Assembly (NCBI GenBank): GCA_964014485.1
Contig: CAXHAT010000082.1
Coordinates: forward strand, 1 to 33,133
DNA: 33,133 nucleotides
Direction of reading: 5' to 3'
DNA from: an uncultured Deferribacteres bacterium
GTDB taxonomy: Bacteria > Zhuqueibacterota > Zhuqueibacteria > Zhuqueibacterales > Geothermadaptataceae
Below the pieces are notes generated by a model. It made no database searches. It was given only the letters and a program-made list of their open reading frames with translations, and was not told where the DNA came from. A program made the position numbers and the translations under genes. Shown here in pieces: positions 461 to 29,845 of this stretch; positions within the stretch are counted from its first letter, which is position 1; the number at the start of each line of letters is the position of its first letter.

Positions 461-484
461 CGCTCAAGTTGTTTGTCAATTTAA

Positions 485-870
485 CTGATGTTACGCACAG
501 TAACACATTTCATGGAAATCAAGAGCAAACATCGTCTCATTAGCGCCGAGCTTCAGCCCGGTGATGTGCAAACGTCCATTTTCATCTCTTCCGCGCCGCT
601 AGCGTGGCGGAAGAGAGAGGAGAGCCGTCTTCAAAAATCTCCGCTCTGAAGGGTACTGTTGGCGAATTTCGGATGACTGCCCGGGCGTCTCATTAGCCGC
701 GCGCTTCAGCGCGTGGACCCGGTCGGGCGCTCTTCTTTTTCCCCCGCCGAGTTAACTCGGCGGGGGAAAAAGGGGGGATGAGCTTGCACTCGTGCCTACG
801 CGCTGAAGCGCGCAGCTAATGAGAATCAAAAGTTGCCCACGGGCGTCAAACGAAGCATGCGTAACATCAG
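485..870. mobile_element. MITE-like element copy A (386 bp, composite interior, opposite orientation to copies B and C)
   Basis: Termini CTGATGTTACGCA (485) and TGCGTAACATCAG (870); perfect 7-bp flanking direct repeat AATTTAA at 478-484 and 871-877. Interior has a truncated (534-651) and a complete (687-824) TCTCATTAGC...GCTAATGAGA hairpin unit. Confidence 0.85.
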
Positions 871-877
871 AATTTAA

Positions 878-1480: not shown

Positions 1481-1529
1481 GACGATATCCAATGAGTATT
1501 TTTTAGTGTTTCAAAGCTAGGCGGTCAAC

Positions 1530-1994: not shown

Positions 1995-1995
1995 G

Positions 1996-3303: not shown

Positions 3304-3325
3304 ATTGGTTCATCCTGAGACGTAT

Positions 3326-3509
3326 TTGTGAAACCCTTTCAGGGTATTGGTTTTACATTTGGTTTCCGTTACCCAGGGCGTTGCCCTGGGCTTTGTTATG
3401 TAACGCCTTCGGCGTAACATTACCGCGAAGCGGTTTGACAACACAGCCTAGGGCAACGCCCTGGGTTTGAGAGCATTCGACGCCGTTTTACTCCGAAGGA
3501 GTTGAACAA
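3326..3509. repeat. REP/BIME-like doublet: two inverted units of three hairpins each
   Basis: ACCCTTTCAGGGT, CCCAGGGCGTTGCCCTGGG, ACGCCTTCGGCGT mirrored by ACCGCGAAGCGGT, CCTAGGGCAACGCCCTGGG, ACTCCGAAGGAGT. Confidence 0.8.
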
Positions 3510-3566
3510 GACTATCATCGATACGCCGAGGCTGAATGACCAATGCCGCGAAGCAAATGACGCTCC

Positions 3567-4349: not shown

Positions 4350-4357
4350 TTGGCGCT

Positions 4358-5191: not shown

Positions 5192-5201
5192 GGATTTTTC
5201 C

Positions 5202-5660
5202 TCAATGCTGTGCATAAATATCCAGCAGTTGCAGGTTTGTTGCGGTCAGGCGTTGTTCCATCATGTGTGCGATACGGCTCATGATTTCATAGCCGAGTTC
5301 ATGATCGGATTCACATTTTCCGCGCAAGCAAGGGCCGTCAAGAGAGATCGTGCGCGTCGGCGTTATGGCTCGCACGTCGAAATGCCAACGGTACGGCGTG
5401 ATCAGCCACGACCAGCCGAGCGCGTCACCGTCGTGTAAAGTTTGAATCGTGAGCCTGCCGCGTTGCGCGCCGCTGATTTCGAGCGCCACTGTGCCTTCAC
5501 GAATAAAATAGAATAAATCCGCCTTTTTGCCTGCTCGTCCGAGGTAGTCGCCTTTGTGAAAACGCTTGTTTGAAGCGCAGCCTACCAGTAAATCGACGTG
5601 TTCTTGCGACAATCCGCGTACAAAAGGGTGTGCTTCAAGAATCGGCTTCAGGTCTTTCAT
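5202..5660 (-). CDS. Stand-alone cyclic-nucleotide-binding (Crp N-terminal) domain protein
   Basis: cNMP beta-barrel pattern (FYFIREGTV...GDALGWSWL); too short to carry an HTH domain. Confidence 0.88.
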
Positions 5661-5675
5661 CAAGTTTCTCCGCGA

Positions 5676-6794
5676 TTATTTTTTTCGCTCGTCAGTTTCA
5701 CGAATGGCGCGCGCTTCTTCGGTAATATCAATGCCCACCGGACACCAGGCAATGCAGCGCCCGCACCCGATACAGCCGCTGGTTTCGAATTGATCGTGCC
5801 AACTGGCGAGTTTGTGCGTCATCCACTGCCGGTAGCGTGAGGCGGCGGAAGGACGAATGGCGCCGCCGTGGATGTAGGAAAAATCCATCGTGAAGCACGA
5901 ATCCCAGCGCCGCCAGCGCTCGGCTGTGTCGCCGGTCAAATCAGTCACGTCTTCAACGGTGGTGCAAAAACAGGTTGGGCAAACCATCGTGCAATTGGCG
6001 CAATTGAGGCAGCGCTCCGCCACGTCGTTCCAACGGTCGTGTTCGAGATTTGCGTAAAGCAGTTCCTTGAGGCCGTCGGTTTCGAGCCGTCTGGTCATTT
6101 GCTCGCGCGTATTGTCGATGACTTTTTCGCCTTTCTCGGTCTCGGCTGCGCTTGCTTTCGTGCAGGGCAGTTTTTCCAAGATGCGCTCGCCCGCCTCCGA
6201 ACCGCTCTGCATCAAAAAATAGTGCTCGCTTTCGGTCAACACTTCCGTGAGCGACAGATCAAAACCGCTTTTTGCGGACGGCCCGGAGCCCATCGAGGTG
6301 CAAAAGCAGGTCGCCGCCGCCTGAGAACAGTTGGTTGTGATGATAAAAGCGTTTTGGCGGTTCGCCTGATAAACGGGGTCGGTGAAATGTTCGCCGAGGA
6401 AAACGCGATCCTGCACTTCAATCGCGCTGAGTTCGCAAGGCCGCACGCCCAAAAACGCGTAGCGCGTTTCTTCGCGTTCTTCTTTCGTTAGTTCGAAGCC
6501 GTTTTCAGAGCGTTTTGCCTGGAACAATCGCACCTTTGGAGGATGCAAATATTTTTTCCAGGATTGCGGCCCAAGATTATAACCGAAAAGCGCCCGATCA
6601 TCGCGTTTTCGCAGGCGATATTCGCCGGGCGCTTGTTCATCGCCCCAACCAATTGGCAAGTCTTCAACGGAGGAAATCTTGTCGTAGACGATAGCCTGAT
6701 CTTCCAGAGTCGGTCCGACAACTTCGTAGCCGTCTTCATGCAAAGCATCCAGAATTGTCTGAAAGTCGTCCGCTTCAAGCCTGAATTCGCCCAT
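5676..6794 (-). CDS. hydB: Sulfhydrogenase beta subunit (4Fe-4S dicluster, AsrA-like)
   Basis: [44 protein letters not shown] at 6794 preferred. Confidence 0.94.
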
Positions 6795-6884
6795 CGTTTT
6801 TTCTTTATTTTTTTGCATATTCGAATTTGAGAAATCTACGACAAGACACAAGTGTAATGGAACAGTCTCGTCAAAAACGTGATT

Positions 6885-7610
6885 CTAATCTTCAGGTTTG
6901 ACCAGGCTTTTCCGGGATTTTTTCAGCTTATGCGCCAGAGCGTCAATCAGGGTTTTTGCCGCGGCGTCTACATCGAGATGCTTGGTATTCAGAAAAAGAT
7001 CATACCTCAGCGGATCGTCGATATCCCGCCGGAAATACTTCCGTGTATAGTTCACCTGCTCTTCTTCTTTGCGCTTGATCAGCGTCGCGGTGCTACCCCG
7101 ACCTTGCTGCATTTCATCGGAGACATAAGTGATGCGGTCATCCAACGGCGCTGCGATCCGCACTTTCAGCGTCGTTTCATCAGGCATAATGAAATTTCCG
7201 CCGCGCCCGACAATAACGGCGCTTTCGTGGCGGCCTATCGACGCCATCGTCGCGACAAGATGCTTGAAGTACCTGTCCTTGCTTAATGAGTGACTATGCA
7301 GAATCGTCATCACCCAATCATTCAGCTCCTGGCGCGTTTTTTCATCGAACATCTCAACAATATTCGTATGAACGTCCGCGCGGCTTGCAATCGCTTCCAC
7401 CAACTCTTTATCGTAAACGGTCCAGTTCAGCGCTTTGCCCAAAGCATTCGCAATATCGACTCCCCGACTGCCGATCTCTCGCGAAACTGTGATGCATGGA
7501 AAAAAACCGCCCTTTTTCAGCTTTCCAGGGTCTTTGGCAACGTGTTCCCAAAGTTCAATCTGGCGAGACGCCAATTGATCGATGGGAATCACTCGTGATA
7601 CTTTCAGCAT
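6885..7610 (-). CDS. Cytidylate-kinase-like family protein
   Basis: ITVSREIGSRG P-loop variant, VIVGRGG, RIAAPLDDR, YDLFLNT; AGGAG Shine-Dalgarno upstream. Confidence 0.85.
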   Translation of the reverse strand: MLKVSRVIPIDQLASRQIELWEHVAKDPGKLKKGGFFPCITVSREIGSRGVDIANALGKALNWTVYDKELVEAIASRADVHTNIVEMFDEKTRQELNDWVMTILHSHSLSKDRYFKHLVATMASIGRHESAVIVGRGGNFIMPDETTLKVRIAAPLDDRITYVSDEMQQGRGSTATLIKRKEEEQVNYTRKYFRRDIDDPLRYDLFLNTKHLDVDAAAKTLIDALAHKLKKSRKSLVKPED

Positions 7611-7686
7611 GTCTCACGCTCCTGGTGATCAATCAACGGATTGTGCACGATCTCGACGAATCGGCTTGTTTTGACTCTTGGGCCAA

Positions 7687-7702
7687 CGCAATTAGCAAGC
7701 CA
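7687..7702 (-). promoter_or_regulatory. Candidate sigma54 (-24/-12) promoter for the hydrogenase operon
   Basis: Minus strand reads TGGCTTGCTAATTGCG: GG-N10-GC spacing with TTGC, about 77 bp upstream of the ATG at 7610. An IHF-like CAA-N4-TTA lies at about 7720-7732. Confidence 0.55.
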
Positions 7703-7937
7703 CAGTAGCGTCACAAACATAAACCGTTGTATTTTATGCAGTTAGCGTACACAAACGATACGCCGTCTTGTGATGAAGATTCGTAAAATCGATAAGAACG
7801 AAGAGCCTTTTCCTAGAATTGAGAACGGCGCGTCAAGGCAAGGCTCCAAAGCAACTTTTTTCGGAGTGCGGCGATGAATCGTCGTCCCGCCGGGCCGCTT
7901 CAAAACACAGAAATTGCAAAGCGTTTCACAGCGTGTT

Positions 7938-7965
7938 GTAGAGGTTCAAGATTTTGAACCCCTAC
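7938..7965. repeat. 28-bp GTAG...CTAC REP-like palindrome (family 1)
   Basis: GTAGAGGTTCAAGATTTTGAACCCCTAC; near-identical copy at 23373. Confidence 0.8.
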
Positions 7966-8217
7966 CGCAAGATGACGCTTTACAAAAAATTTATCTTGAG
8001 TCCGCTTCCACGGCAAACGCTGAAGCGCTTGACTCCAACGCCACTTTTGGAAAAGGTTTCGTTGTTTCGCGCCGAGGCGCTGCAGCTTAACGGACGACAT
8101 TTTGAGCCCGCAGCTTTGCTTTGAACACGGTGCAAGGAATTCGCAGTGAATGACTTGCGGAATTGGAAAAATGAGGTGATCTTTTCGAGATGATTCAATC
8201 GTCGGTAATTTTATTTG

Positions 8218-8459
8218 CTGATGTTACGCACGCGTTGTTTGGCACGAGCAATCAAAGCCTGCGGGTAACTTTCGGTTCTCACTAGCTCCGCTCTTCAGAG
8301 CGGAGACTTTTGAAGACGCCCGTCCCCTCTCTTCCGCCGCTCTGGCGCGGCGGAAGAGAAGAAAATGGGCGTTTTGTGCGTCACCGGGCTGAAGCCCGGC
8401 GCTAATGAGACGAGATTTGCCTCAAGATTCAGGATGTGCGTTGACGCGCATAACATCAG
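8218..8459. mobile_element. MITE-like element copy B (242 bp)
   Basis: CTGATGTTACGC...GCATAACATCAG; flanks TTATTTG and TTACTTA (5/7 match, eroded TSD). Interior is colinear with copy C. Confidence 0.85.
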
Positions 8460-8500
8460 TTACTTATCCAACGAACTCGCGCTTACAGGAGGACTACGCT

Positions 8501-11101
8501 TTGCTTACTCGATCAAAAAAAATGATTGCGGCTGTTTTGGGGTGTCTTTGGGTCGTTCCAGCATTCGGTCAGGTCGATCTTTCCTATTACATGCCTCAGG
8601 ACGTTTCATACAATTCCGACATTCCAAAACCCGCGGACTATCTTGGTTTTCAGCCGGGAGAGTGGCATTTGCGTCACGATCTGCTGGCCGGATACATGCA
8701 TCTTCTGGCGGAAAAATCGGATCGCATCACGATTGAAGAGTACGGACGGACGTATGAAAATCGTCAACTGCTCCTGCTCACCATCACTTCGCCCGAAAAT
8801 CAGCAAAACATCGACGATTTGCAGGCGGCGCATGTGCGATTGAGCGACCCTGAAAGTTCGTCATCCTCGAATATTGACGAGATGCCGGCGGTGGTGTGGT
8901 TGGGCTACAGCGTTCACGGCAACGAGCCCAGCGGCGCTAATTCAACGCCGTTGGTCGCCTACTACCTCGCGGCGGCGCAAGGCGAAAAAATCGACGACTT
9001 GCTGAACAACACGATCATTCTGCTCGACCCCAGCATCAATCCCGACGGCCTCGGACGCTTCGCGCACTGGGCTAATTCACACAAAAGTAAAAATCTCGTC
9101 GCCGATCCTTTGAATCGCGAGCACCGCGAAGCATGGCCGGGCGGGCGCACCAATCATTATTGGTTCGATCTCAACCGGGACTGGCTGCCAGTACAACATC
9201 CCGAAAGTCAGGGCCGAATCAAAAAATTTCATGAGTGGAAACCGAACGTGCTCACCGACCATCATGAGATGGGCACGAACTCGACCTTTTTCTTTATGCC
9301 CGGCATACCTTCGCGCAACAACCCGCTGACGCCGGAGCGCACTTTTGAGCTGACCGCCGAAATCGCAAAATACCACGCCAAGGCGCTCGACAAAATCGGC
9401 TCGCTTTATTACGCCAGAGAAAGTTTTGACGATTTTTATTACGGCAAAGGCTCGACCTATCCCGACGTAAACGGCGCCGTCGCCATTCTTTTCGAGCAAG
9501 GCAGCTCGCGCGGGCATTTGCAGGAGAGCATTCACGGCGATTTGAGCTTTCCCTTCACGATTCGCAACCAATTCACCGCATCGCTCTCTACGCTCGAGGC
9601 GGCGCGAAACCTGCGCACCGACTTGTTGCAGCATCAGCGCAATTTTTATACGACGGCGATGGACGAAGCGCAAAGCTCCGGCTTGAAAGCGTATGTTTTT
9701 GGCGATCCGCACGATCCGGCGCGCACGGCCGCGTTTGTTAAAATCCTGCTGACACATAAAATTCGCGTTCACAAGCTCGGCGGTGATTTGAACTTGAATG
9801 GACACAATTTCAAAGCGGATGAAGCGTTCGTTGTGCCATTGGGACAGCCGCAGCACCGCTTCATCAAAGCACTATTTGAGCGGCGCACGACTTTTCAAGA
9901 TAGTCTGTTTTACGACGTTTCCGCCTGGACGCTGCCCTTGGCTTTCAACATCCCTGACGCGGAAGTGCTCGCCGGGAATTTTTCCGCCAACCTGCTCGGC
10001 GACGCCGTCGAATCTGCTGACACGCCGAACGGCCAACTTTTTCGCAGTGACCGAACTTATGCGTATGCTTTCGAGTGGCGCGGCTATTTTGCCCCGCGCG
10101 CGCTTTACAAAATTTTGAAAGCCGGACTCAAAGCAAAAGTCGCGACGCGGCCGTTTGAGGCTGTCACGGACAACGGCCCGAAAAAATTTGATTACGGCGC
10201 TATCATTGTCCCGCTCGGCATTCAGGGCGAAGCCGCTGAAAAAGCGCACGCTTTGGCGCAGTCGATCGCGGCGGATGACGGAATCGACGTTCACGCCGTC
10301 ACGACAGGATACGCGCAATCCGGGATTGATTTGGGCAGCCGCAATTTTGAAATGATTCGCAAGCCCAAAGTGTTGATCGTCGGCGGTTCGGGCGCTTCCG
10401 GCTACGGCGTTGGCGAAGCGTGGCATCTTTTCGATCAACGCTATGACATGGACGTGAGCATCATCGAGCAGAGTTATCTGAATTTCATGGATTTGCACGA
10501 TTACACGACGATGGTGATGGCGGGTGGTTCTTACCGTGATATTAATAAATCCGGCGTTGAAAACATTGAGCGGTGGTTGCGGAGCGGCAATACGTTGATT
10601 ACATTAGGCGGCGCTGCGCGTTGGGCGGTCAACCAAAAGCTGGCGACGGCGGAATTCAAGAGTTCTCCGTCCGATTCCGGCGTAGCAAAACGGCGTTATG
10701 TCGATGCTGGAAATGATCGCGGCGCGGAGGTCATAGGCGGGGCGATTTTCGAGACGGAGCTGGATTTGACGCATCCAATTGCTTACGGTTATACGCGCGA
10801 CAAACTGGCCGTTTTTCGTCGCGGGACGATGTTCATGAAACCTTCGAAAAGCCCGTACGCGACGCCTTTGCGCTACACGGATTCGCCATTGTTAGCCGGA
10901 TATAGTTCTGACGCCAACAAAAAGGCCATTGCCAACACCGCAGCCGTTGTCGTCAGCGGCAAGGGTTCCGGCCGGGTGATTATGGTGATGGACAACGTCA
11001 ATTTTCGCGCTTTTTGGTACGGCACGAACAAGCTTTTCATCAACAGCGTCTTTTTCGGCGACGTCATCAGCGGCGGGACGTTGCGAGGCGAAGAACACTA
11101 A
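8501..11101 (+). CDS. Secreted M14 family zinc carboxypeptidase
   Basis: VHGNEPSG, NPDG, DLNRDW, DHHEMG motifs. TTG start at 8501 follows AGGAGG and gives a signal peptide; the ORF-track extension to 8405 lies inside MITE copy B. Confidence 0.92.
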   Translation: MLTRSKKMIAAVLGCLWVVPAFGQVDLSYYMPQDVSYNSDIPKPADYLGFQPGEWHLRHDLLAGYMHLLAEKSDRITIEEYGRTYENRQLLLLTITSPENQQNIDDLQAAHVRLSDPESSSSSNIDEMPAVVWLGYSVHGNEPSGANSTPLVAYYLAAAQGEKIDDLLNNTIILLDPSINPDGLGRFAHWANSHKSKNLVADPLNREHREAWPGGRTNHYWFDLNRDWLPVQHPESQGRIKKFHEWKPNVLTDHHEMGTNSTFFFMPGIPSRNNPLTPERTFELTAEIAKYHAKALDKIGSLYYARESFDDFYYGKGSTYPDVNGAVAILFEQGSSRGHLQESIHGDLSFPFTIRNQFTASLSTLEAARNLRTDLLQHQRNFYTTAMDEAQSSGLKAYVFGDPHDPARTAAFVKILLTHKIRVHKLGGDLNLNGHNFKADEAFVVPLGQPQHRFIKALFERRTTFQDSLFYDVSAWTLPLAFNIPDAEVLAGNFSANLLGDAVESADTPNGQLFRSDRTYAYAFEWRGYFAPRALYKILKAGLKAKVATRPFEAVTDNGPKKFDYGAIIVPLGIQGEAAEKAHALAQSIAADDGIDVHAVTTGYAQSGIDLGSRNFEMIRKPKVLIVGGSGASGYGVGEAWHLFDQRYDMDVSIIEQSYLNFMDLHDYTTMVMAGGSYRDINKSGVENIERWLRSGNTLITLGGAARWAVNQKLATAEFKSSPSDSGVAKRRYVDAGNDRGAEVIGGAIFETELDLTHPIAYGYTRDKLAVFRRGTMFMKPSKSPYATPLRYTDSPLLAGYSSDANKKAIANTAAVVVSGKGSGRVIMVMDNVNFRAFWYGTNKLFINSVFFGDVISGGTLRGEEH

Positions 11102-11147
11102 TTCGTAGGTGCGCATTGCGATACGCACACAAATCTCGGACGAGGTT

Positions 11148-11175
11148 GTAGAGACGCGATGCATCGCGTCTCTAC
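11148..11175. repeat. 28-bp perfect GTAG...CTAC REP-like palindrome (family 2)
   Basis: GTAGAGACGCGATGCATCGCGTCTCTAC; a degenerate GTAG hairpin precedes it at 11105-11130. Confidence 0.85.
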
Positions 11176-11256
11176 CGTCAGATCAGCGTTTTCCTAAACA
11201 AGTTTGTATTGAGGCCGCGCCCCAATCCATATTCTAATGTCACAATCGCTAAGACA

Positions 11257-12150
11257 ATGAAAACCAGCAAACCATTTAGAATTCTTCTCTACTACAAATA
11301 CATCAAAATTGAAAATCACGAGGCTTACGCCGAACTGCATTTGCGCTTCTGCAAGGCGCTAGGCGTACTCGGACGCGTCATCGTAGCGCCGGAAGGCATT
11401 AACGGCACGGTCTCCGGGACGGTTGAGCAGACGGAAGCCTACATGAACGGCATGCAAATGGATCCGCGCTTCGGCGACGTCGTGTTCAAGATCGACAAAG
11501 CGGATGAACATGCTTTCCGGCGCATTTCCGTTAAACCGAAAAATGAGATTGTTTCGTTGAAATTGGAAAACGATCTCGACCCGAATGAGTTGGGTGCGCC
11601 CCATCTCGATCCGAAGGATTTTTTCAAAAAAATGCAGGAGGAGGACGCCGTCATCCTCGACGTGCGCAACGATTACGAGTATGAATTAGGCCATTTTCGC
11701 GGAGCCGTACGGCCAGACGTTCGCGCTTTTCGCGACTTTCCCAAATGGGCCAGGCGAGAGCTAAAGGACTTTAAAAACAAGCCCGTCCTGACTTACTGCA
11801 CCGGCGGCGTGCGTTGCGAAAAATTCACCGGTTTTCTTTTGAGGGAAGGCTTTACCGACGTTGCACAATTGCGCGGCGGCATCGTTTCATACGGCAAAGA
11901 CCCGGAGGTGCAGGGGAAAAATTTTGACGGCGAATGCTTCGTTTTTGACGACCGACTGTCCGTGCAAGTCAACCGCACCGAGGGAGCCAACGTGATCTCC
12001 CATTGTCATTATTGCGGCGAGTTATCCGCGCGATACATCAACTGCTCACGCTCGACTTGCCACACGCTGTACATTTGCTGTGAAAATTGTGAAAAGGAGC
12101 ACGGCGGCGCTTGCTCGCCTGGATGCGAAGCTTTATTGAAAGAAGCGTAG
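11257..12150 (+). CDS. trhO: tRNA uridine(34) hydroxylase TrhO (YceA/UPF0176 rhodanese family)
   Basis: LLYYKY, GRVIVAPEGINGT, LDVRNDYEYELGHF, YCTGGVRCEK, CFVFDDR and Cys-rich tail. Confidence 0.92.
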   Translation: MKTSKPFRILLYYKYIKIENHEAYAELHLRFCKALGVLGRVIVAPEGINGTVSGTVEQTEAYMNGMQMDPRFGDVVFKIDKADEHAFRRISVKPKNEIVSLKLENDLDPNELGAPHLDPKDFFKKMQEEDAVILDVRNDYEYELGHFRGAVRPDVRAFRDFPKWARRELKDFKNKPVLTYCTGGVRCEKFTGFLLREGFTDVAQLRGGIVSYGKDPEVQGKNFDGECFVFDDRLSVQVNRTEGANVISHCHYCGELSARYINCSRSTCHTLYICCENCEKEHGGACSPGCEALLKEA

Positions 12151-12200
12151 CGTAACATTGTCACGCTTAACTCTTCCGATTGTCAAGTTCCAGAAGAAGA

Positions 12201-12302
12201 AGGAGTGCAAAGTTTGCTTTGCTTCTCGCTCGGCGAGACCGAATGAAACGCATGATTCAGAAGAAGCCCGCCGCTGAAAAGCAAGGCAAGCCTTGCACTC
12301 CT
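12201..12302. repeat. GGAG-footed inverted REP pair (REPIN-like) between convergent genes; possible terminator role
   Basis: AGGAGTGCAAAGTTTGCTTTGCTTCTC ... GAAAAGCAAGGCAAGCCTTGCACTCCT. Confidence 0.7.
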
Positions 12303-12404
12303 CACGCTTCGCGGATACAATCGGCGGAGACTTGAACGACAAGGTTTTATGGAAGCCGAACAGGAAAAATCAGGCGTGACAATACACAATTCAGTTTGCG
12401 CGAT

Positions 12405-13184
12405 TCAGCGAATCCCGGCCAAATAGTTTTGAATTCTTTCGCGGTAGCCACGACTAGAAGTCAGACAGACGTCGTTATTCAAAATCAAATCAAACTCTCC
12501 GCCTGGATGCGGCTTTAACTCACGAACGCGGCCAATATTGACCATGGTTGAACGATGTATTCGGAGAAATTTTTGAGGATCGACGCGCCGCTCAAAATCG
12601 TTCATCGTCGCGCGGTGCAGACAGCTTTTCGAGCCGATGTGCAGCTCAAGGTAATTGCCCGCCGCTTCAATCCAATCAACTTTTTCGAGATCGACAACGA
12701 TAATTTTTCCCGCCGATTTTACCGCCAGCCGCGATAGAAATTCTTCGGAACGCCCGGGCAAACGCTGTTTAATATTTTCAAACATTTGCCAAAGCTCTCC
12801 CCGAAACCCGTCGTGATCATTCAGAATGCGTTCGCGAATGCGCTGAATCGTTTTTGAAAATCGTTGACGGTCGAAGGGTTTGAGCAAATAATCCAGCGCG
12901 TAGTGATCGAACGCTTGCACGGCGTACTTGTCGTAGGCGGTGACGAACACGACCATTGGAGCGCTTTCTGGGGCAAGCTTCTTCAACACTTCCAAACCGT
13001 CGATTTCCGGCATTTGCACATCGAGAAAAACGAGGTCTGGTTTTGTTCGAGCCAACTCTTCCAAAGCTTCCGCGCCGTTTTTGCATTCCGCGACAATCTG
13101 GAATTCCGGTTCGTTTTGCAAGAGCGTACGAATCCGTTCCCGCGCCAACGGCTCGTCGTCAACGATGATTGTTTGAATTTTCAT
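12405..13184 (-). CDS. LytTR-family response regulator
   Basis: IVDDEPLAR, FLDVQMP, FVTAYD, DYLLKP receiver motifs; FLRIHRS LytTR domain. True ATG at 13184 overlaps the kinase end. Confidence 0.95.
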   Translation of the reverse strand: MKIQTIIVDDEPLARERIRTLLQNEPEFQIVAECKNGAEALEELARTKPDLVFLDVQMPEIDGLEVLKKLAPESAPMVVFVTAYDKYAVQAFDHYALDYLLKPFDRQRFSKTIQRIRERILNDHDGFRGELWQMFENIKQRLPGRSEEFLSRLAVKSAGKIIVVDLEKVDWIEAAGNYLELHIGSKSCLHRATMNDFERRVDPQKFLRIHRSTMVNIGRVRELKPHPGGEFDLILNNDVCLTSSRGYRERIQNYLAGIR

Positions 13185-14262
13185 AGGGAATTTTGATTCG
13201 GATATCCAGGCCGCCGCCTGCGGCTTCCAACAACTCAAACGAAAATTTCTCGCCGTAAAGCTGCTCAAGCCGGGCTTTTGTGTTTTGCAAGCCAACGCCT
13301 TCCCGGATTTTCTCAGACGCGTCGTTTTGTAGCCCGGGGCCGTTATCGCTGACGCCAAGTTGCAATTGGCCGTTTATTTTTTCTGCACTCAACCGCACAA
13401 CCCCGGCGCCGGACTTTTTCGATACGCCGTGCCGAATAGCGTTTTCAACCAACGGCTGCAAGATCAAATTTGGCACTTCCGCCGCAAGTGCGCTTTCAGC
13501 AACGTCTCGCTCGATGCGCAATCGATCCTGAAATCGCACTTGTTCGATGTGCAGGTATTTCTCCAACAGAGCGATTTCTTCGCTTAATTTCACCTTTTGG
13601 CGCGCCGGATTTTCCAGAACGAGCCGCAGCAAATCGCTCAATCGTGCGATCATTTGGTCGGCGGCTTCGGGGTCTTTGTGAATGAGCGTGGAAACGGCAT
13701 GCAACGTGTTAAACAAAAAATGGGGATGAAGCTGCATTTTCAGCGCTTGCAATTGCGCTTCGCTGAGCTGCGAGCGCAGTTTTGACGCGCGCAGTTCTCC
13801 TTCTCGAAAACGGTGGTAATAATTAATTGCCAGGACAACGAAAACGATGACCGCGTAGGTCAGAACGCCGTTGTGAATATTGCGCAATACGCCGCCAACG
13901 AGCCGCTCAGCCAACGTCTCGTTGCCATAGGCCGGAATTGGCAGAAAATCACTTGTTACGACGTATAGAGCGGACTGCGCGACAGCAAAAATCAGGCTCA
14001 ATAAAAAGTGAATCGCAACGTCGCGCGACCGCTTTTCGAAGAACGGGAATTTTCGGGTGAAATAGAGAATGGCGGGCGTAAGCAGCGCCCAAATGTAAGC
14101 GTCTACCAGCGGCAAGAATTGCTGCGCGAGGGGAATCGGCGTCGGCATGTTCGCGGCAATCATGATGTATCGACTGGAGAGAAATAACCCGACAATCGTC
14201 CAGCCGATGAAGATCAACAGAAGCCGGGCGGAGCGTTTTTGCAGAACCGGGGCTGTCAACAT
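13159..14262 (-). CDS. LytS/YehU-type membrane sensor histidine kinase
   Basis: Four TM segments, LKMQLHPHFLFNTL H-box, LQPLVENAIRHG, DNGPG, GVGLQN. Confidence 0.95.
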   Translation of the reverse strand: MLTAPVLQKRSARLLLIFIGWTIVGLFLSSRYIMIAANMPTPIPLAQQFLPLVDAYIWALLTPAILYFTRKFPFFEKRSRDVAIHFLLSLIFAVAQSALYVVTSDFLPIPAYGNETLAERLVGGVLRNIHNGVLTYAVIVFVVLAINYYHRFREGELRASKLRSQLSEAQLQALKMQLHPHFLFNTLHAVSTLIHKDPEAADQMIARLSDLLRLVLENPARQKVKLSEEIALLEKYLHIEQVRFQDRLRIERDVAESALAAEVPNLILQPLVENAIRHGVSKKSGAGVVRLSAEKINGQLQLGVSDNGPGLQNDASEKIREGVGLQNTKARLEQLYGEKFSFELLEAAGGGLDIRIKIPYENSNNHR

Positions 14263-14273
14263 TTTTGCTCAAG

Positions 14274-15197
14274 TTATTGATTTACGAGAAAGGCCCTCGC
14301 GTCAATGGCCGTCTTTCTCGGAATTTCTTCCATCGGTACGTGCCCGACGTCTTCGTAGACGATGAGTCGAGCATTGGGAAGGTCCGCCTCAAATCGGTGC
14401 GCATTTTCAACCAGCGTCCATTTATCCTCTGCGCCCCAAAGCACCAGCGCGGGCGTTTGCAAAGATTTGAGTTCCAGCGTACGATCAACAAATTTTGTCT
14501 TTGCACGAGCAATAAACGCTTCCCGATTGCCTTCGCGCAACGAAAATTCGTAATACCGCTCAACCAATTCGGGCGTGACTTTGCTGTCGTCGGCATAAAC
14601 GTCGAGCAGGCTTTTTTCGACCAGGTTGCGCGGCGTGATGTGTCGGACAACGTTATTGACGAGCGGTATTTGGGCGAGCCGGAAAACGAATGGCGTCCCA
14701 GGCGACGGGTAGCCCGCTGCGTCGAGAAGAATCATTTTTCGCACTTTGGTTGGAAATTCGAGCGTGTACGTCCATGCGATTCGACCGCCGAGAGAATTGC
14801 CTGCAATGTAGAACGAATCGACTTTCAAATATGTGAGAAATCTGTCGAGGAAATTCACATAATTTTGAATCGAGTAATCGTGCGTCTTGTTTGGCCCGGT
14901 TAAGCCGAACGCCGGCAAATCCATGCGAATAATCCGAAATTCGCTGCTCAGTTCTTTGACCCAGCCGTCCCAGGTATGCAGCGACGCGCCTGTGCCGTGC
15001 AGCAAAACCAGCGGCGCGCCCTCGCCTTCGTCGCGAAAATGCACCTGCATGTCGTCAATTTGGATAAATCTGGAGGCGTCGTTCGTGTATTTTTCTTTCA
15101 ATTGTTCGAACGGAATGTCTTCTTGAACCTGCGTGAGCATAACAACGGTCAAGATAACGAACAACGCCAAAAGAGCATAAAGCGTTTTCTTTAGCAA
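14274..15197 (-). CDS. Alpha/beta-fold hydrolase with N-terminal membrane anchor
   Basis: LLHGTG, DLPAFG, GNSLGG nucleophile elbow, WGAED, GHVPMEE. Confidence 0.92.
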   Translation of the reverse strand: MLKKTLYALLALFVILTVVMLTQVQEDIPFEQLKEKYTNDASRFIQIDDMQVHFRDEGEGAPLVLLHGTGASLHTWDGWVKELSSEFRIIRMDLPAFGLTGPNKTHDYSIQNYVNFLDRFLTYLKVDSFYIAGNSLGGRIAWTYTLEFPTKVRKMILLDAAGYPSPGTPFVFRLAQIPLVNNVVRHITPRNLVEKSLLDVYADDSKVTPELVERYYEFSLREGNREAFIARAKTKFVDRTLELKSLQTPALVLWGAEDKWTLVENAHRFEADLPNARLIVYEDVGHVPMEEIPRKTAIDARAFLVNQ

Positions 15198-15223
15198 TCC
15201 ACTCTCCGGTCAAAATGCAAGTC

Positions 15224-15292
15224 TGGAATGATGGGGTGTTGGATTATTGAAGAAATGTATCTTCCATTCATCCAAAAATCCAATACTCCAGT
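15224..15292. repeat. Head-to-head 8-mer array (TGGRNTRN then TCCAWNAN)
   Basis: TGGAATGA TGGGGTGT TGGATTAT TGAAGAAA ... TCCATTCA TCCAAAAA TCCAATAC TCCAG. Confidence 0.65.
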
Positions 15293-15304
15293 CGAAAATG
15301 AACA

Positions 15305-16408
15305 TTAGCGAATAAATGCGGCTGCTAATTGCTGCGGCAGATCGCCCCACCGCGCGCCGCCTATGTTGGTCAGAATGCTTACGACCACTTTTTGTTCCGG
15401 ATAAACGATCAGAAAAGCCGTGCCGCCTACCGAGCCGCCGCTGTGACCGACCCAATGCCTGCCTTCCGCGTCTTTATTTGTGCGCCAGCCGATCCCATAG
15501 TTTGTCGGCTTTCCGTCGTCCGTTTTTAGCGACTGCCACAAAATGTCGATGGACGTTTGCTTGAGAAATCCAGGCTGGAAGAACGCCATGCCAAAGCGCA
15601 CCATATCCGCGGTGTTTGCGATAAAACCGCCGCCCGCCCATTTATAGCTGTTATCGACGAAAGGAGCATTAATGACGGCGCCATCACCGCTTCTGGCGTA
15701 AAATCGCGTTCGATAAGCGATCAAGCTGTCGACATGATCCGCCGATGTGTGGATCATCCCAATCGGCCAGAAAACATTCTCGCGCATAAAAGCCAAAAAT
15801 TCTTCGTCAGACGCGCCTTCAATCACCGCGCTCACCAGATTCCAGCCGTAACTCGAATACGAATACTTCGTTCCGGGCTGAAAAAGCAGCGTGTCGTCTT
15901 CAAAAACATCCAATCCTTGCGCGACGGTTTTGAAGTTTTTGGATGACAAGAATTCAAGCCCGCGATAGTGCCGAATCCCGGCGATGTGCCCGGCAACTTG
16001 CCGCGTCGAGATCGGCCAGCGTTTTTCGGGGAAATCGGGCACGTATTTTTGTACCGGAGCGTCGAGGTCGAGCTTGCCGTTTTCGTGCAAAAGCATGACG
16101 GCGGCGCCGGTTAGAGATTTCGAAACGCTCCCGACGCGGAATTTGGTCAGCGGCGTTACGCGTACGCGATTTTCAACATCCGCCCAGCCAAAACCTTCCG
16201 TCCAGACAATTTTTCCGTCAACGCCGGCGGCAACGGAAAAACCGGGCAAATTATTCTTGTCCAGAAACTCATGAATAATTTGCGTCGCCTTTTCAATACT
16301 TCCCGAATATTCATGCGCAGGCGCAAAGGCGTGCTTCCCGTTCGTTTGCGCCTTGAGGGTCGAAACTGCCAGAAATATAAAAACGAAAAGTATGCGTCTT
16401 TTTTTCAT
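15305..16408 (-). CDS. Secreted serine hydrolase (class C beta-lactamase/D-aminopeptidase-like)
   Basis: Signal peptide MKKRRILFVFIFLAVSTLKA; SxxK (SVSK), YSS, HSG motifs; FQPGTKYSYS. Confidence 0.92.
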   Translation of the reverse strand: MKKRRILFVFIFLAVSTLKAQTNGKHAFAPAHEYSGSIEKATQIIHEFLDKNNLPGFSVAAGVDGKIVWTEGFGWADVENRVRVTPLTKFRVGSVSKSLTGAAVMLLHENGKLDLDAPVQKYVPDFPEKRWPISTRQVAGHIAGIRHYRGLEFLSSKNFKTVAQGLDVFEDDTLLFQPGTKYSYSSYGWNLVSAVIEGASDEEFLAFMRENVFWPIGMIHTSADHVDSLIAYRTRFYARSGDGAVINAPFVDNSYKWAGGGFIANTADMVRFGMAFFQPGFLKQTSIDILWQSLKTDDGKPTNYGIGWRTNKDAEGRHWVGHSGGSVGGTAFLIVYPEQKVVVSILTNIGGARWGDLPQQLAAAFIR

Positions 16409-16443
16409 TAACCGTTTACCTCGGTCATTTTCCACATTATTGA

Positions 16444-16686
16444 CTGATGTTACACACCGCCGTTTGGCACGCGCGATTAAAGCCCGCAGGCAACTCTTTG
16501 ATTCTCATTAGCTCCGTTCTTCAGAGCGGAGACTATTAAAGACGCCCGTCCCATCCCTTCCGCCGCGCTGGCGCGGCGGAAGGGATGAAAATGAGCGCCT
16601 TGCACGTCACCGGGCTCAAGCCCGGTGCTAATGAAACTATGTTCAAGTCTGAACAACAGGCGATGCATCGGCGTGCGCAACATCAG
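16444..16686. mobile_element. MITE-like element copy C (243 bp)
   Basis: CTGATGTTACAC...GCGCAACATCAG; flanks TTATTGA and TCATTGA (6/7 match). Same three-hairpin interior as copy B. Confidence 0.87.
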
Positions 16687-16885
16687 TCATTGAGTTAAGA
16701 ACTTCGACAAGCGGAATAAATGGAATGGTCAGTGAATTTTGTTTCAGGAATGAAAAATGAAAGGCGGGGATTTTCAATCGATTCGTGACGAAGCAAGCTT
16801 CGGCGGGGCAAAAGCGCCGCGCATTTTTAAAATACGCGGCGCACAATTCGTCAAGCGGTTTCAAACGCTGAATTACAGGATTCGG

Positions 16886-18337
16886 TCACATCGTTTTGAA
16901 CTTCCCGGCGTGAAGGTCGGCCCTAACGGCAGGGGTCAAAAGATAATCTTTCAAAAGCAAATTTCGCTCATGCAGAATGCGGCGGAAGGGGTCGAATCGC
17001 TTTCTGACTTTTTTCGCGGTTTCCAAAGTCACTTCCTTGCAATCGCGCAAATCAAGCTCGAATTGATCGCGGACGTTCGCCGGGAAATCGCCGCCATAAA
17101 CGAAAATATTGCTTTCAGAATGGTGCAGAGCTGAGCCGCGCGCGATGTTGTATGAGCCAACCGAAGCAAAAACGCCGTCGATGACGATGTTTTTTGCGTG
17201 GAATGCGCCGGGCTTTTGCCATTCAAAAACGCGAATGCCGCGCTCAATCAACCAGCGGAAATGATTACTGCTTTCCCAGTACATCCAGCCCAAAAGTCCG
17301 CCCAGCATCAGCGTCTTCGACGCCCGTTTTGAGTTCGTGATGAGACGAATTTCCACGCCTCGCGCCGCAGCTTCAGCCAAGGCTTCGGCCAAAATTCTCG
17401 GCGGGCGAATACCGTGACATCCCCAATAAATGTATCTTTTCGCTTCTCTGATAAGTTGCAAAAAAGCGTCGGTCATGGTCAATTCGTTATCGTCGTAAGG
17501 CTTGTGCGCGACGTAGCGAATTTCCTCATCGCCGGTTTTCGGCAAATACGGGAAATATTCTGAACCTTCTTCGCGCATGAAGGCCGCCTCCCGCTGTGGC
17601 CCGTCGTCGGTTTCTTCGTTCATCGCCTTGTAGCGAAAGAAATCCTTGACAAATTGCTTCTGAATGTCCGCCACAACAGGCCCGCTGATGTAAGCGTCGG
17701 AGTCACGCCAGGCTTTTGGCTTAATACCGCCGAGTGCGTACTTATCGCCCCAGTTGAGGCCGCCAAGAATCGCTTCGCGTCCGTCAACGATCAGATATTT
17801 TTCATGAAAATGTCGTTTGAGCTTGAATTTCGCCGTACGGGCAATTTGCCGGAAGGGGTGGCCTTCCCGCCATTTGGGGAACCATCCTCGGAAGAATTTG
17901 TGGTAACGAACCGTCCCCGCGCCAGCTTTTTCAAGTGTTTTCACAATACCGCCGCTAAAAGTGGAAAGCATGACGCCGTCGTCAAAAATCAGACGCACTT
18001 TTACGCCTTCGCTCAATTTTTTGAGCAAAAGATCGCGCAGTCTGAAGCTCGTTTTGTCACGCATCAGCGAAAACGCAACGATATGGATGCTGTGCTGAGC
18101 CTTTTCGAGCAACTCCCACCGCTTCGCATAAGAAGTTATTCCGCTGGGCAGGTGGACGACTTTGTTGCCTTCGCGAACTCTCGAATGCGTTAAAAAATCC
18201 GTTTCGGCGTGATTCTCGCTCTGCAAGATAGGATGGTCAGCGGCATAATCCGTCGCTTCGATTTGAGCAGGCGACGTTGACGTGGCCGTCGTGTTGCCGG
18301 CCGCTTCGATGACTTGATCGTGTATATCGTTTTGCAT
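16886..18337 (-). CDS. Phospholipase D / cardiolipin synthase-like protein
   Basis: Two HKD motifs (HEKYLIVD, HAKNIVID), GGLN, WRDSD, GSYN. No N-terminal TM segment; start uncertain. Confidence 0.9.
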   Translation of the reverse strand: MQNDIHDQVIEAAGNTTATSTSPAQIEATDYAADHPILQSENHAETDFLTHSRVREGNKVVHLPSGITSYAKRWELLEKAQHSIHIVAFSLMRDKTSFRLRDLLLKKLSEGVKVRLIFDDGVMLSTFSGGIVKTLEKAGAGTVRYHKFFRGWFPKWREGHPFRQIARTAKFKLKRHFHEKYLIVDGREAILGGLNWGDKYALGGIKPKAWRDSDAYISGPVVADIQKQFVKDFFRYKAMNEETDDGPQREAAFMREEGSEYFPYLPKTGDEEIRYVAHKPYDDNELTMTDAFLQLIREAKRYIYWGCHGIRPPRILAEALAEAAARGVEIRLITNSKRASKTLMLGGLLGWMYWESSNHFRWLIERGIRVFEWQKPGAFHAKNIVIDGVFASVGSYNIARGSALHHSESNIFVYGGDFPANVRDQFELDLRDCKEVTLETAKKVRKRFDPFRRILHERNLLLKDYLLTPAVRADLHAGKFKTM

Positions 18338-18656
18338 GACATGCTCACTTGTTTTGAAGTTAGCTCCGTCCAAGCCAGTTGGCCTGTTTGAGAAACATGT
18401 CAAGAAATTCGTCCGCGCTTCCCTGAAAAAGGGACGAAAGCGGACGATCATTCGAATACTCGCCTTCAACCATTATTATGTAAGTTTTATTTTTCTCATT
18501 TTCAACTGAAATGCAGAAGCCTTTTGTAAAAAATGTGATCAGTTTGAGCGCTATTTTCTGGGAAAAGGCGCATTAATCGAGTAATTTTTTGTAGAGACGA
18601 AAACGCAAGGCGGTGCATCAAACGCCGAGTTTCCAATCTTACCAAGAGAGGGTAAA

Positions 18657-19295
18657 ATGTCTTGCTGTCAATGTCAGGGCGTTGAACAGATGTTCGACGA
18701 CAAAAACGCTCGCAAGGAACTCAAAAGCTATCACAAAAAAGGGGCGAGTAAGACCACGCAATTGCTCGTCAACGCCGTCCGGGAGCTTGGCGACGGCAGT
18801 TCGACACTGCTTGACGTCGGCGGCGGGGTTGGGGCGATTCAGCACGCGTTATTAAAAAACGGCTTCGAAAAAGCAACGCACGCCGATGCATCGTCTGCGT
18901 ACCTTACCGTCTCCAAACAAGAGGCCGAACGCCAAGGCACGGAAGATCGGGTTGATTATCGATTTGGAAACTTCGTGGAGATCGCGCCGGAAATCAAAAC
19001 ACACGATGTTGTCACCCTAGATCGCGTCATTTGTTGTTTCGATGACATGCCGGCATTGGTGCGCTCTTCGGCGGAGCGGGCCGAAAAATTGTATGGCGTG
19101 GTTTATCCAAGAGATCGCAAAAGTACGCGGATCGCGGCGAAACTGGGAAATTTTTTCCTGAAACTGCTGCGCAAACCTTTTCGCGGATTTATCCATAAAA
19201 CCGAGGACGTTGAAGCAATTTTGCGCGAGCTTGGTTTTCAGCGAAAATTCCACAAGAATCTCTTTATTTGGCAAGTGGCCGTTTTTGCCAAGTAA
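18657..19295 (+). CDS. Class I SAM-dependent methyltransferase (BchM-like fold)
   Basis: LLDVGGGVG motif I, HDVVTLDRVICC. Confidence 0.88.
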   Translation: MSCCQCQGVEQMFDDKNARKELKSYHKKGASKTTQLLVNAVRELGDGSSTLLDVGGGVGAIQHALLKNGFEKATHADASSAYLTVSKQEAERQGTEDRVDYRFGNFVEIAPEIKTHDVVTLDRVICCFDDMPALVRSSAERAEKLYGVVYPRDRKSTRIAAKLGNFFLKLLRKPFRGFIHKTEDVEAILRELGFQRKFHKNLFIWQVAVFAK

Positions 19296-19418
19296 TGCCT
19301 GCCGGTTATTCGGCAGATTCAAAATCTAACCGAAAACTCTGGAACCAAACGCTTCGCCGTTTAATTTAGAAGGCGGCGCTGCAATCATGAATCGTCGCAC
19401 ACCGCAAAGAGTTAATCA

Positions 19419-19649
19419 CTGATAACGCAGCTGACCAATAATATGGCATTTGATTAAAATCTTTGCTCTACGCGTCATTCCTGCGTAGGCAGGAATCCAG
19501 AAAATGGTGCACGGCCACTGGATTCCTGCCTCCGCAGGAATGACCTTGAAAAACGTTTTGGGGTCAGACAGCTTTGTTTCCAATTGCAATTTTCGATTCG
19601 GCCGGAAACCAATCTACAGCATGCATTATTGGTAAGCGCCTAACATCAG
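19419..19649. mobile_element. MITE-like element copy D (231 bp, different cargo)
   Basis: Degenerate left end CTGATAACGCA, right end GCCTAACATCAG; perfect TSD TTAATCA at 19412-19418 and 19650-19656; subterminal inverted repeat ACCAATAAT/ATTATTGGT. Confidence 0.78.
19474..19544. repeat. GTCATTCC-type inverted REP pair (dRS3/RPE-like) inside copy D
   Basis: GTCATTCCTGCGTAGGCAGGAATCCAG ... CTGGATTCCTGCCTCCGCAGGAATGAC. Confidence 0.85.
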
Positions 19650-19729
19650 TTAATCAGAAGCATTCTTCAATTTTGCGGCGCTTCCCTCCCGCCCCGGCCG
19701 CACATCTCAAAAGAACTCCGCTTAGCAAG

Positions 19730-19755
19730 GCAACCCTTTGAAAAACGACGCTGTC
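19730..19755 (+). promoter_or_regulatory. Candidate ECF-type autoregulatory promoter
   Basis: GCAAC-N17-TGTC upstream of the ECF sigma gene, matching the general ECF AAC/GTC pattern. Confidence 0.5.
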
Positions 19756-19801
19756 CTACGGATGAATTTCAGATCATTCGGCACAGCAAAGCCAATATTC
19801 A

Positions 19802-20428
19802 TTGAGCGCTCAAGACAGGACAAAATCATTGCAAAACGCAGTCGCTGATAAAACACTCGAGGCGAAAAATATTGAGGCGGAATTGATCGCCGCCTGCCAA
19901 AGGGGGGAACGGCAGGCGCAGTTTCAATTTTATCAGAAGTACAATGAGAAAGTGTTCAACATTGCGTTTCGCATGGCAAACGACTCTCAGGCCGCGGAAG
20001 ATTTAACCCAGCAAACGTTCATCAAGGCATTCCAAAAGATGGGTGATTTTCGCGGCGAGGCGGCGCTCTCGTCCTGGCTTTACCGCATCACGACAAACTT
20101 GTGTCTGAATCATCTGAAAAAGGCGAATCGCTGGCGAAAGCTCGTTTCCCGCGACGCCCCGGAAGTAACGCGCCGAATCCCTGCAAAGTCTTTCGAGAAT
20201 TCAGGGAGCGCGGCGTTAAAACCGCATCTCGAAAAGGCGATTCAGAAACTGCCGGATCGCTACCGGACGGTTTTTGTCCTGCATGACGTCGAGGGATTCA
20301 ACCATAAGGAAATCGGCGATATGCTGGGCGTTGCAGTCGGTACTTCAAAATCGCAATTGCACAAAGCGCGGCGTTCGCTTCGTGAAATATTGTCGCCGGT
20401 GTTGGCCATGCATAAGTCTTTGAGTTAA
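19802..20428 (+). CDS. ECF RNA polymerase sigma-70 factor
   Basis: AEDLTQQTF, FRGEAALSSWLYRI (region 2); LPDRYRTVFVLHDVEGFNHKEI, GTSKSQLHKAR (region 4). Start may instead be TTG 19829. Confidence 0.96.
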   Translation: MSAQDRTKSLQNAVADKTLEAKNIEAELIAACQRGERQAQFQFYQKYNEKVFNIAFRMANDSQAAEDLTQQTFIKAFQKMGDFRGEAALSSWLYRITTNLCLNHLKKANRWRKLVSRDAPEVTRRIPAKSFENSGSAALKPHLEKAIQKLPDRYRTVFVLHDVEGFNHKEIGDMLGVAVGTSKSQLHKARRSLREILSPVLAMHKSLS

Positions 20429-20452
20429 AACTTTATTACGGGACGCACAAAT

Positions 20453-20578
20453 ATCTCATTCCCAATCTCCGAATTGGGAATGAGATTGGGCAAGAAACTC
20501 CGGTTTCGAACCAAAGAATATACTCGAAACTGGAGTTTCGAGAGCAAGTAGGTTCCCAATCCGGAGATTGGGAACGAG
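20453..20578. repeat. CTCRTTCCCAA-type four-hairpin REP element
   Basis: CTCATTCCCAATCTCCGAATTGGGAATGAG, GAAACTCCGGTTTC, CGAAACTGGAGTTTCG, GTTCCCAATCCGGAGATTGGGAACGAG arranged as one large inverted repeat. Confidence 0.8.
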
Positions 20579-20589
20579 CCAGAAAACGA

Positions 20590-23227: not shown

Positions 23228-23372
23228 CCCACGCGACGTGAAGGGTAACCGGTCAGCTTACCAACCGCGTTTGCGGTCTTGCTCGAAGAGTGGGAGTCAA
23301 ACGCTTCAACGTTTGATTGGGAGCTTTCTGTGGGGGCTTAAAACATAATATTTATAATGGGTTACACCAAAT

Positions 23373-23400
23373 GTAGGGGGTCAAAATTTTGAACCCCTAC
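23373..23400. repeat. 28-bp GTAG...CTAC REP-like palindrome (family 1)
   Basis: GTAGGGGGTCAAAATTTTGAACCCCTAC. Confidence 0.8.
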
Positions 23401-23532
23401 GATATGCTGTATGCCTTGTATTCAGAGACCATATTTTTGAACAATCCCACTCAGGAGAAAGAGTTACTCAGAAGCACTTGGCGACTCTCGACAAATAAAA
23501 CTTTCATTGCACAAGATGGAAAGGATGACAAA

Positions 23533-29810: not shown

Positions 29811-29845
29811 GAAACCAAGAATTTCAGACTTTGAATAATTCGACA

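Follow-up and report, generated by a model that had tools for sequence, protein, structure and literature searches.

We analysed a stretch of DNA, the window, which is an entire contig (C82, positions 1-33,133) of an 8.40-Mb assembly with 465 contigs, 50% G+C and 97% completeness. The window carries five copies of a short element (Table 1). They had been proposed in the first-pass annotation, and reading the sequence confirmed all five at their coordinates, together with their ends and flanks. The motif CTGATGTTA, at no more than one mismatch, was found 11 times in the window, where 3.08 occurrences are expected, and none of 100 shuffles reached 11.

Both ends of copy 1 are exact and it lies between two exact 7-bp repeats of AATTTAA (478-484 and 871-877). 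It was a singleton in the clustering, and its sequence is repeated up to 79 times genome-wide. The flanks of copy 2, TTATTTG and TTACTTA, match at 5/7 positions. Copy 3, the focal copy, ends on the right in CAACATCAG, with one mismatch, and its flanks TTATTGA and TCATTGA match at 6/7 positions. As single-stranded DNA it folds at -62.7 kcal/mol with a z-score of -6.2. A search of Rfam 15 gave no matches at the gathering score across the window, and the focal copy gave sub-threshold chance hits only. Copy 4 has a degenerate left end (CTGATAACGC), an exact right end and an exact duplication, TTAATCA; it shows 91% identity to one member of cluster 4 across 226 bp. Copy 5, which counts among the elements cut by contig ends, has the left flank TTATTAA (33015-33021) and shows 90% identity over 84 bp to an element start at C388:407-490. 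A nested second repeat begins inside it at about position 33093 (TCAACCTAAT...).

Table 1. Positions and properties of the elements in the window, of the MITE subfamilies and of related or rejected insertion sequences.
Feature	Position	With flanks	Strand	Description
Copy 1	485-870	478..877	.	386-bp composite; two sets of hairpin modules
Copy 2	8218-8459	8211..8466	.	Subfamily A, 242 bp; 51-member cluster 0
Copy 3 (focal)	16444-16686	16437..16693	.	Subfamily A, 243 bp; cluster 0
Copy 4	19419-19649	19412..19656	.	Subfamily E-like, 231 bp
Copy 5	33022 to contig end	33015..33133	+	Subfamily B-like, first 112 bp only
Subfamily A	Window copies 8218-8459, 16444-16686			51 members, ~242 bp
Subfamily B	Window start at 33022 of B type			39 members, 174 bp
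Subfamily C	No window copy			23 members, ~282 bp
Subfamily D	No window copy			21 members, ~172 bp
Subfamily E	19419-19649 is 91% identical to one member			20 members, ~233 bp
CTGATGTTACGCA-ended IS	Acinetobacter schindleri pHZE23-1-1
CTGATGTTACGCA-ended IS	Cyanobacterium HL-69 pCHL69-1			Annotated 'group ISAba11 transposase'
CTGATGTTACGCA-ended IS	Polaromonas naphthalenivorans pPNAP01
CTGATGTTACGCA-ended IS	Stanieria NIES-3757 plasmid1
Near-identical end CTCACCTTACGCA	Piscirickettsia salmonis plasmid
Near-identical end CTGAAGTTACGCA	Moraxella osloensis plasmid
Relative in G093				53-60%; starts CTCACGTTACGCAC after TTATTCA
ISNCY-type copies	C50:1581-3612, C190:13452-15078, C458			85-92% identical; NF033593 361 bits

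Two of the copies lie next to putative genes. The focal copy is about 29 bp upstream of a likely gene start on the reverse strand (ATG at 16408-16406, GAGG at 16422-16419) and would occupy the promoter or leader region of that gene. A 1064-aa ORF at 29831-33025 stops at a TGA within the terminal CTGATG of copy 5. Since this stop is inside the end of the element, the insertion at TTATTAA has replaced the original last codons or stop of the gene. Judging from such positions close to gene starts and ends, the copies may alter the expression of those genes.

Abundance and anatomy of the elements in the genome

The exact 12-mer end CTGATGTTACGC occurs 351 times in the genome (173 forward, 178 reverse), and the backwards pattern that served as a control was found 0 times. 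For the exact 9-mer end we counted 438 occurrences genome-wide against about 63 expected by composition. At up to two mismatches we counted 566 left ends and 568 right ends. Chance alone would give roughly 316 on either side, and the loose ends were therefore used solely as pairs. Pairing left with right ends up to 600 bp apart gave 222 elements of 57-531 bp (median 235 bp, 51.5 kb in total), with about 7 expected by chance. A further 160 ends without a partner are located no more than 600 bp from a contig end, where about 20 are expected by chance. These contig-cut ends were compared with the complete copies, leaving those with fewer than 45 bases unjudged. Among the 160, 20 were poorly matched to complete MITEs, most of which look like chance; no recurrent non-MITE sequence was seen, and no end stood out as a candidate insertion-sequence end.

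The first-pass annotation had predicted many copies genome-wide and had noted no evident coding function in the window copies. The 222 complete and up to 160 contig-cut copies bear out the prediction, and the elements of 57-531 bp carry no transposase gene. Up to 160 of the 930 contig ends stop within an element, so the elements account for much of the fragmentation of the assembly.

The exact 12-mer was searched in 167 genomes of the phylum. Each of the 166 other genomes (one of which, G023, is unpublished) contains at most two matches, compared with the 351 found here. A BLAST search with the focal MITE against 40 relatives matched nothing outside its own genome. The amplification is specific to the lineage, being massive in this genome only among the 167 searched. 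With hundreds of copies here and no more than two exact 12-mers in any of the other 166, the element can also serve as a lineage marker.

The complete copies fell into 58 clusters, 44 of them singletons; subfamilies A to E are listed in Table 1. Conservation covers positions 1-14 but not the interior. The subfamilies have only the terminal 12-14 bases in common, CTGATGTTACGC(A/G)C, and the interiors of at least five of them are mutually unrelated strings of GC-rich hairpins. The elements are short, lack a transposase gene and have conserved terminal inverted repeats, all of which characterise MITEs.

The 7-bp target duplication and past mobility

The flanks of the MITEs have the consensus TTANTAA (T-T-A-N-T-A-A), which is AT-rich and near-palindromic. 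Since such a consensus could make the two flanks resemble each other without any duplication, we ran three tests. In the first, direct repeats abutting the ends were exact at 7 bp in 89/222 pairs, at 8 bp in 20/222, at 6 bp in 9/222 and at 9 bp in 0/222, and shuffled partners averaged 1.7 and never exceeded 6 at 7 bp. No exact 6-8-bp duplication was present in 104 of the 222 pairs. In the second test, the central base of the flank was identical on both sides in 166/222 pairs and complementary in 19/222. As the central base is the same and rarely complementary, the flanks are a direct-repeat duplication and not an extension of the inverted repeat. The third test used the 97 pairs with matching inner five bases. 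Here the last base was copied in 22/28 pairs in which it was not A on both sides, and the first base in 18/20 pairs in which it was not T on both sides. Since the outer bases are copied as well, the duplication is 7 bp long, which excludes 5 bp plus one extra base of the inverted repeat.

Scanning the genome and tabulating the flanks, as the first-pass annotation had suggested, thus gave 7-mers that match far above chance (89 against 1.7). The flanking 7-mers in the window are as it described them, two pairs being exact (AATTTAA, TTAATCA) and the others matching at 6/7 and 5/7. Empty sites, which it proposed to look for in related genomes, were found as paralogous sites in the same genome that hold one 7-mer or 8-mer. 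The MITE at C6:53764-54057 lies within another repeat and has TTTGTAA on both sides; 25 other copies of this repeat do not carry the MITE, and in these empty-site copies the overlap between the two flanks is exactly 7 bp. For the MITE at C255:6686-6849 the paralogous empty site has a single 8-mer. These paralogous empty sites show that the MITEs were mobile in the past.

We also considered whether the elements are palindromic units of the REP/BIME kind or genes for structured RNAs, which might have spread for example through a RAYT-type transposase or recombination. Their interiors are GC-rich hairpins, the focal copy has a z-score of -6.2, and hairpin modules are also found without the terminal repeats, e.g. 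at window 20429-20586. However, sharp terminal inverted repeats, 7-bp duplications and clean empty sites typify DDE cut-and-paste transposition, Rfam gave no match and the unrelated interiors have only the ends in common. We therefore regard such units or RNA genes as extremely improbable, and as an account of the spread this route is refuted by the presence of both the terminal inverted repeats and the target duplication. Once inserted, the hairpins could still have a role in RNA or DNA metabolism. The terminal inverted repeats, the 7-bp duplication and the empty sites bear out the original proposal of a MITE that would be moved by a DDE transposase in trans.

Insertion sequences with the same ends

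The search of the 167 genomes gave a candidate partner in G128, a genome of the same class that is 79% complete. On its 1667-bp contig C747, two matches in inverted orientation bound a 1140-bp element with perfect CTGATGTTACGCA repeats and a single 360-aa ORF; the assignment of this element to G128 rests on the binning of that short contig into the 79%-complete genome. The ORF scored 342.9 bits on NCBIfam NF049921 (transpos_IS701_2, IS701 family; cut-off 250) and matched Pfam DDE_Tnp_1 and DDE_5. On IS4 models it scored 93.5 against a cut-off of 250 and 42.9 against a cut-off of 115. Its translation contains the motif Y-2-R-3-E-6-K. Of 8,000 candidates that were scored, over 7,000 were related to this transposase at E <= 1e-10, and most of these were on contigs of 1.1-1.8 kb.

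The 13-mer CTGATGTTACGCA also bounds plasmid relatives with 46-52% protein identity in four organisms, and further relatives with similar ends are given in Table 1. In all, CTGATGTTACGCA-ended insertion sequences of about 1.1 kb occur in five bacterial phyla. The insertion sequences of this clade are 1095-1148 bp long, carry one gene of 347-361 aa and are present in few copies per replicon. Of 15 end pairs on five plasmids, nine have exact 7-bp duplications, one more fits 8 bp and five have none; six pairs lack an exact duplication of 6-8 bp. The exact 7-mers are TTGACAA, CTTATAA, TTAAAAA, TTAATAA, AAGGTAA, TATACAC, TAATTAA, ATATTTA and TATTTAA, and some of them begin with a base other than T or have a last base other than A. 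A more distant relative from Fulvitalea, with ends CTGACCTTTCGC, has three copies with duplications of 6, 6 and 7 bp. In Piscirickettsia salmonis (NZ_CP039041.1) a 564-bp pair of ends at 234929-235492, whose flanks differ at 4/7 positions, lies beside 1148-bp copies, and 1436-bp variants with exact 7-bp duplications are found at 13614-15049 and 203166-204601. The 564-bp and 1436-bp forms may have arisen from the insertion sequence by deletion and by insertion.

Since the ends, the duplication length and the AT-rich type of target agree, the MITEs match the NF049921-type clade of insertion sequences. Both have identical or near-identical 13-bp ends and a 7-bp, occasionally 6- or 8-bp, duplication, and the targets of the insertion sequences (TTAATAA, TAATTAA, TTAAAAA) are AT-rich like the MITE sites. 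The MITEs differ in their length of 57-531 bp, the lack of a transposase, the interiors unrelated to those of the insertion sequences and the hundreds of copies. From these sequence comparisons, the MITEs are very probably non-autonomous elements of the NF049921-type IS701 clade that are moved in trans; the link between MITE and enzyme rests on end identity and duplication length. The MITE termini would be the binding and cleavage ends of this ~1.1-kb IS701-family clade with its DDE transposase. Supplied in trans, the transposase would pair both MITE ends and cut the element out or copy it. Insertion would then proceed through staggered cuts, 7 bp apart (in some cases 6 or 8), at the AT-rich, near-palindromic TTANTAA, and repair of the stagger would leave the flanking duplication. 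The transposition chemistry and the source of the enzyme are the parts of this model that we infer.

The first-pass annotation had not recognised the family and had noted that a match of the ends to a catalogued element would remove the novelty. The ends are identical to those of a catalogued IS701-family lineage (NF049921) that also duplicates 7 bp, so the claim of an unrecognised family fails. Its view that the enzyme is not of the IS10/IS50 type was correct: no exact duplication was found at 9 bp (0/222) and the partner protein is below the IS4 cut-offs. The MITE set is new and very abundant, but it belongs to a known IS lineage and is no new kind of element.

ISAba11 resembles the clade in belonging to the broad IS701 family, in its length of about 1.1 kb with one transposase gene and in the inner TTACGCA of the 13-bp repeat, whereas its outer six bases are TAGGAC instead of the CTGATG of the clade and the MITEs. 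An ISAba11 copy on a plasmid of A. baumannii ATCC 17978 is 1101 bp long, with ends TAGGACTTACGCA and the 5-bp duplication CATAT, and the ISAba11 protein shares about 28% identity with that of G128. The accessible part of a preprint calls a 5-bp duplication 'characteristic' of ISAba11 (bioRxiv 10.1101/2020.10.08.331108). With 7 bp and CTGATG against 5 bp and TAGGACTTACGCA, the MITEs do not belong to the strict ISAba11 group.

For IS701, the accessible part of De Palmenaer et al. 2008 (PMC2266710) gives a duplication of exactly 4 bp and a YREK tyrosine that is mostly missing. For the IS4 subgroups IS10, IS50 and ISPepr1 it gives 5'-CT ends and duplications of 9, 8-9 and 7-8 bp, respectively. Set against these values, as far as that part of the paper reports them, our data indicate that the clade unites a protein of IS701 type, as judged by NCBIfam, with CT ends and duplications of 7 bp. 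The ISPepr1 subgroup is described there as similar to the MITEs in its 5'-CT ends, AT-rich targets and 7-8-bp duplications, but it is 1500-1600 bp long and its consensus YT-AA-YTT---A, compared as listed, fits CTGATGTTACGCA at 6/8 positions. The end motifs are missing from the supplement text of PMC2266710, in which the alignments are probably images and may still show the ends.

Other bacterial MITEs, such as MITEAba12, Nezha and the Correia elements, are likewise small and non-coding, with terminal inverted repeats, a duplication, mobilisation in trans and many copies; they have different ends and different cognate families. In the literature searched we found no MITE for the IS701 family, including the 2024 review of prokaryotic MITEs (PMC10969869), in the main text of which 'IS701' does not occur. 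The 12-mer was not found as an insertion-sequence end in that literature either, and its hits were, by title, apparent primers in unrelated papers. Our results tie a MITE burst to an IS701-family clade. Mildly new are the size of the burst within a single uncultured lineage, with the enzyme missing from the assembly, and the 7-bp duplication of the clade in comparison with the 4-5 bp quoted for IS701 and ISAba11.

Next to the matches in other genomes, we found no autonomous element with the same ends in this fragmented 465-contig assembly. The G128 protein had 0 matches in it at E <= 0.01, the NF049921 family model gave nothing above 15 bits, and tblastn with nine proteins of the clade returned no more than two hits, both at chance level (E 0.2-0.4). 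Binned short-read assemblies lose repeats before anything else. Since a repeated insertion sequence of about 1.1 kb falls below the 1570 bp of the smallest contig retained, it may have been dropped, and its absence from the organism is not demonstrated. We therefore consider it most likely, with modest confidence, that the cognate transposase is present in the organism and was lost from the assembly. Its loss from the lineage is less likely, and we give still less weight to supply by a plasmid or another replicon.

If the cognate IS701-type element had been lost from the lineage, the MITEs would be fossils without present movement. This is possible but not our favoured reading. It agrees with the lack of a transposase in a 97%-complete assembly, with a median nearest-neighbour identity of about 90% (178/222 copies have a near-full-length partner) and with the exact 7-bp duplication being kept in only 89/222. 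Moreover, no contig across three runs joins over a MITE, although this concerns contigs only and has no bearing on polymorphism. However, completeness counts marker genes and not repeats, and the insertion sequence is below the contig minimum. Four of the 178 copies have a 99-100% identical partner, and up to 160 contig ends break within MITEs, as near-identical recent copies cause in short-read assembly. Since recent identical copies break contigs, the assembled copies are biased towards old ones. The contigs came from three runs of one marine-metagenome study and were compared with window 1-20000; none skips a MITE from duplication to duplication, and contigs drop rare variants. In these three-run contigs the MITE bins had a summed depth of 48-79 compared with about 5-8 elsewhere, as expected of repeats.

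Nested elements and other repeats

IS10 and IS50 of the IS4 family have ends that begin with CTGA, and the IS10 target is near-palindromic. For the MITEs these two subgroups were rejected, with 0/222 exact duplications at 9 bp and 20/222 at 8 bp. Two IS4-family elements in this genome lie within MITE-like ends and could have been the autonomous partners, namely C25:31228-33005 (409 aa) and an element on C388 (441 aa). Both proteins pass NF033592 (145.5 and 197.8 bits; cut-off 115), both are flanked by sequence matching the ends of MITE subfamily A or B, and 'CT' ends are tabulated for IS10 and IS50 in the accessible part of PMC2266710. We consider them very unlikely partners. The transposase segment on C25 carries its own inverted repeats (GTCACTAACTTTTCG) and sits between two copies of TGAAGCCC in the third hairpin loop of a MITE-A, and other copies have that hairpin intact. 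Among 80 metagenome loci with C25 relatives, none has CTGATGTTACGC-type ends (there was one loose match, with 5 mismatches), and the close relatives end in GCCCAATG(G/T)CACTAAC. The inner part of C25 occurs once in this genome, and the C25 protein is shorter than those of 27 relatives by about 60-90 residues at the C-terminus. The C388 locus is a nest, with the 441-aa IS4-family gene in a subfamily B hairpin, an ISAs1-like gene and a fragment of another IS. Since the C25 and C388 proteins are barely alike (31 bits), they cannot have one common end specificity.

A long member encoding a transposase, which the first-pass annotation had proposed to look for, was thus not found in this assembly. 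The 1778-bp candidate with subfamily A ends (C25:31228-33005) is a nested, unrelated IS4-family element. A scan of the genome for longer members gave five end pairs 600-10000 bp apart with at most one flank mismatch, none of them clean, and no transposase was found within 4 kb of nine orphan ends. A search of genome contigs with the C25 protein gave relatives of 28-33% identity only. The multi-copy 468-aa ISNCY-type element (Table 1) was rejected as a partner as well, since its ends, TAGTGTCCATCCG, are unrelated. Its C50 copy has a 297-bp insert that is present also on C15 and C388.

The relatives of C25 gave a further observation. In 25 loci, the 24-base stretches just beyond the core ends form inverted repeats with each other, with a mean of 14.1/24 matches compared with 9.0 for shuffled partners (maximum 10.8). 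Given these inverted repeats around C25-type cores, the clade seems to insert into hairpin loops, unless the stems are lineage-specific extensions of the clade's own repeats. The start TCAACCTAAT belongs to a second short-repeat family, which is found within the hairpin of copies belonging to subfamilies B and C (window 33093-33133). At C388:472-3500 the same start precedes the 441-aa IS4-family gene; the nest there also holds the ISAs1-like gene, on the reverse strand and 371 aa long, and an ISNCY-type fragment of 297 bp. The hairpin-targeting IS4-family set nested inside MITEs is again mildly new.

Two linked readings may be put forward together, and we hold the pair as a tentative and rather doubtful suggestion. 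According to the first, the CTGATGTTACGCA-ended insertion sequences would form a distinct, so far undelimited IS701 subgroup, defined by a 7-bp (6-8) stagger at TTANTAA, IS10-like CT ends and Y-2-R-3-E-6-K, in contrast to the 4-bp (IS701) or 5-bp (ISAba11) duplications and the mostly missing motif in descriptions of the family. According to the second, the MITEs and the IS4 elements would form a two-tier system. The MITEs would spread GC-rich hairpin modules around the genome, and their hairpins would serve as landing sites for the hairpin-loop-targeting IS4-family clade and its short derivatives.

The window holds other repeats that lack CTGATG ends. A 158-bp run of GC-rich hairpin modules (e.g. 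CTCATTCCCAATCTCCGAATTGGGAATGAG) at 20429-20586 has up to 93 genome matches, and its modules also make up the interior of subfamily C. Repeats at 23253-23476, 3371-3509, 7899-7966 and 12241-12365 have up to 54, 7, 12 and 11 genome matches, respectively. The contigs of the source runs break or rejoin near window positions 7884-8036, 11144-11177 and 12222-12302. Adapter sequence, CTGTCTCTTATACACATCT..., which we take to be the Tn5 mosaic end, was found in the first 103 bases of C35, in the last 77 bases of C201 and at a loose end at window 8434 (run X3); adapter at contig ends is an assembly artefact. Subfamilies B and E contain palindromes of the form GTCATTCC(C/T)GCG...GGAATCCAG, which resemble the dRS3 form ATTCCC-N8-GGGAAT of Neisseria.
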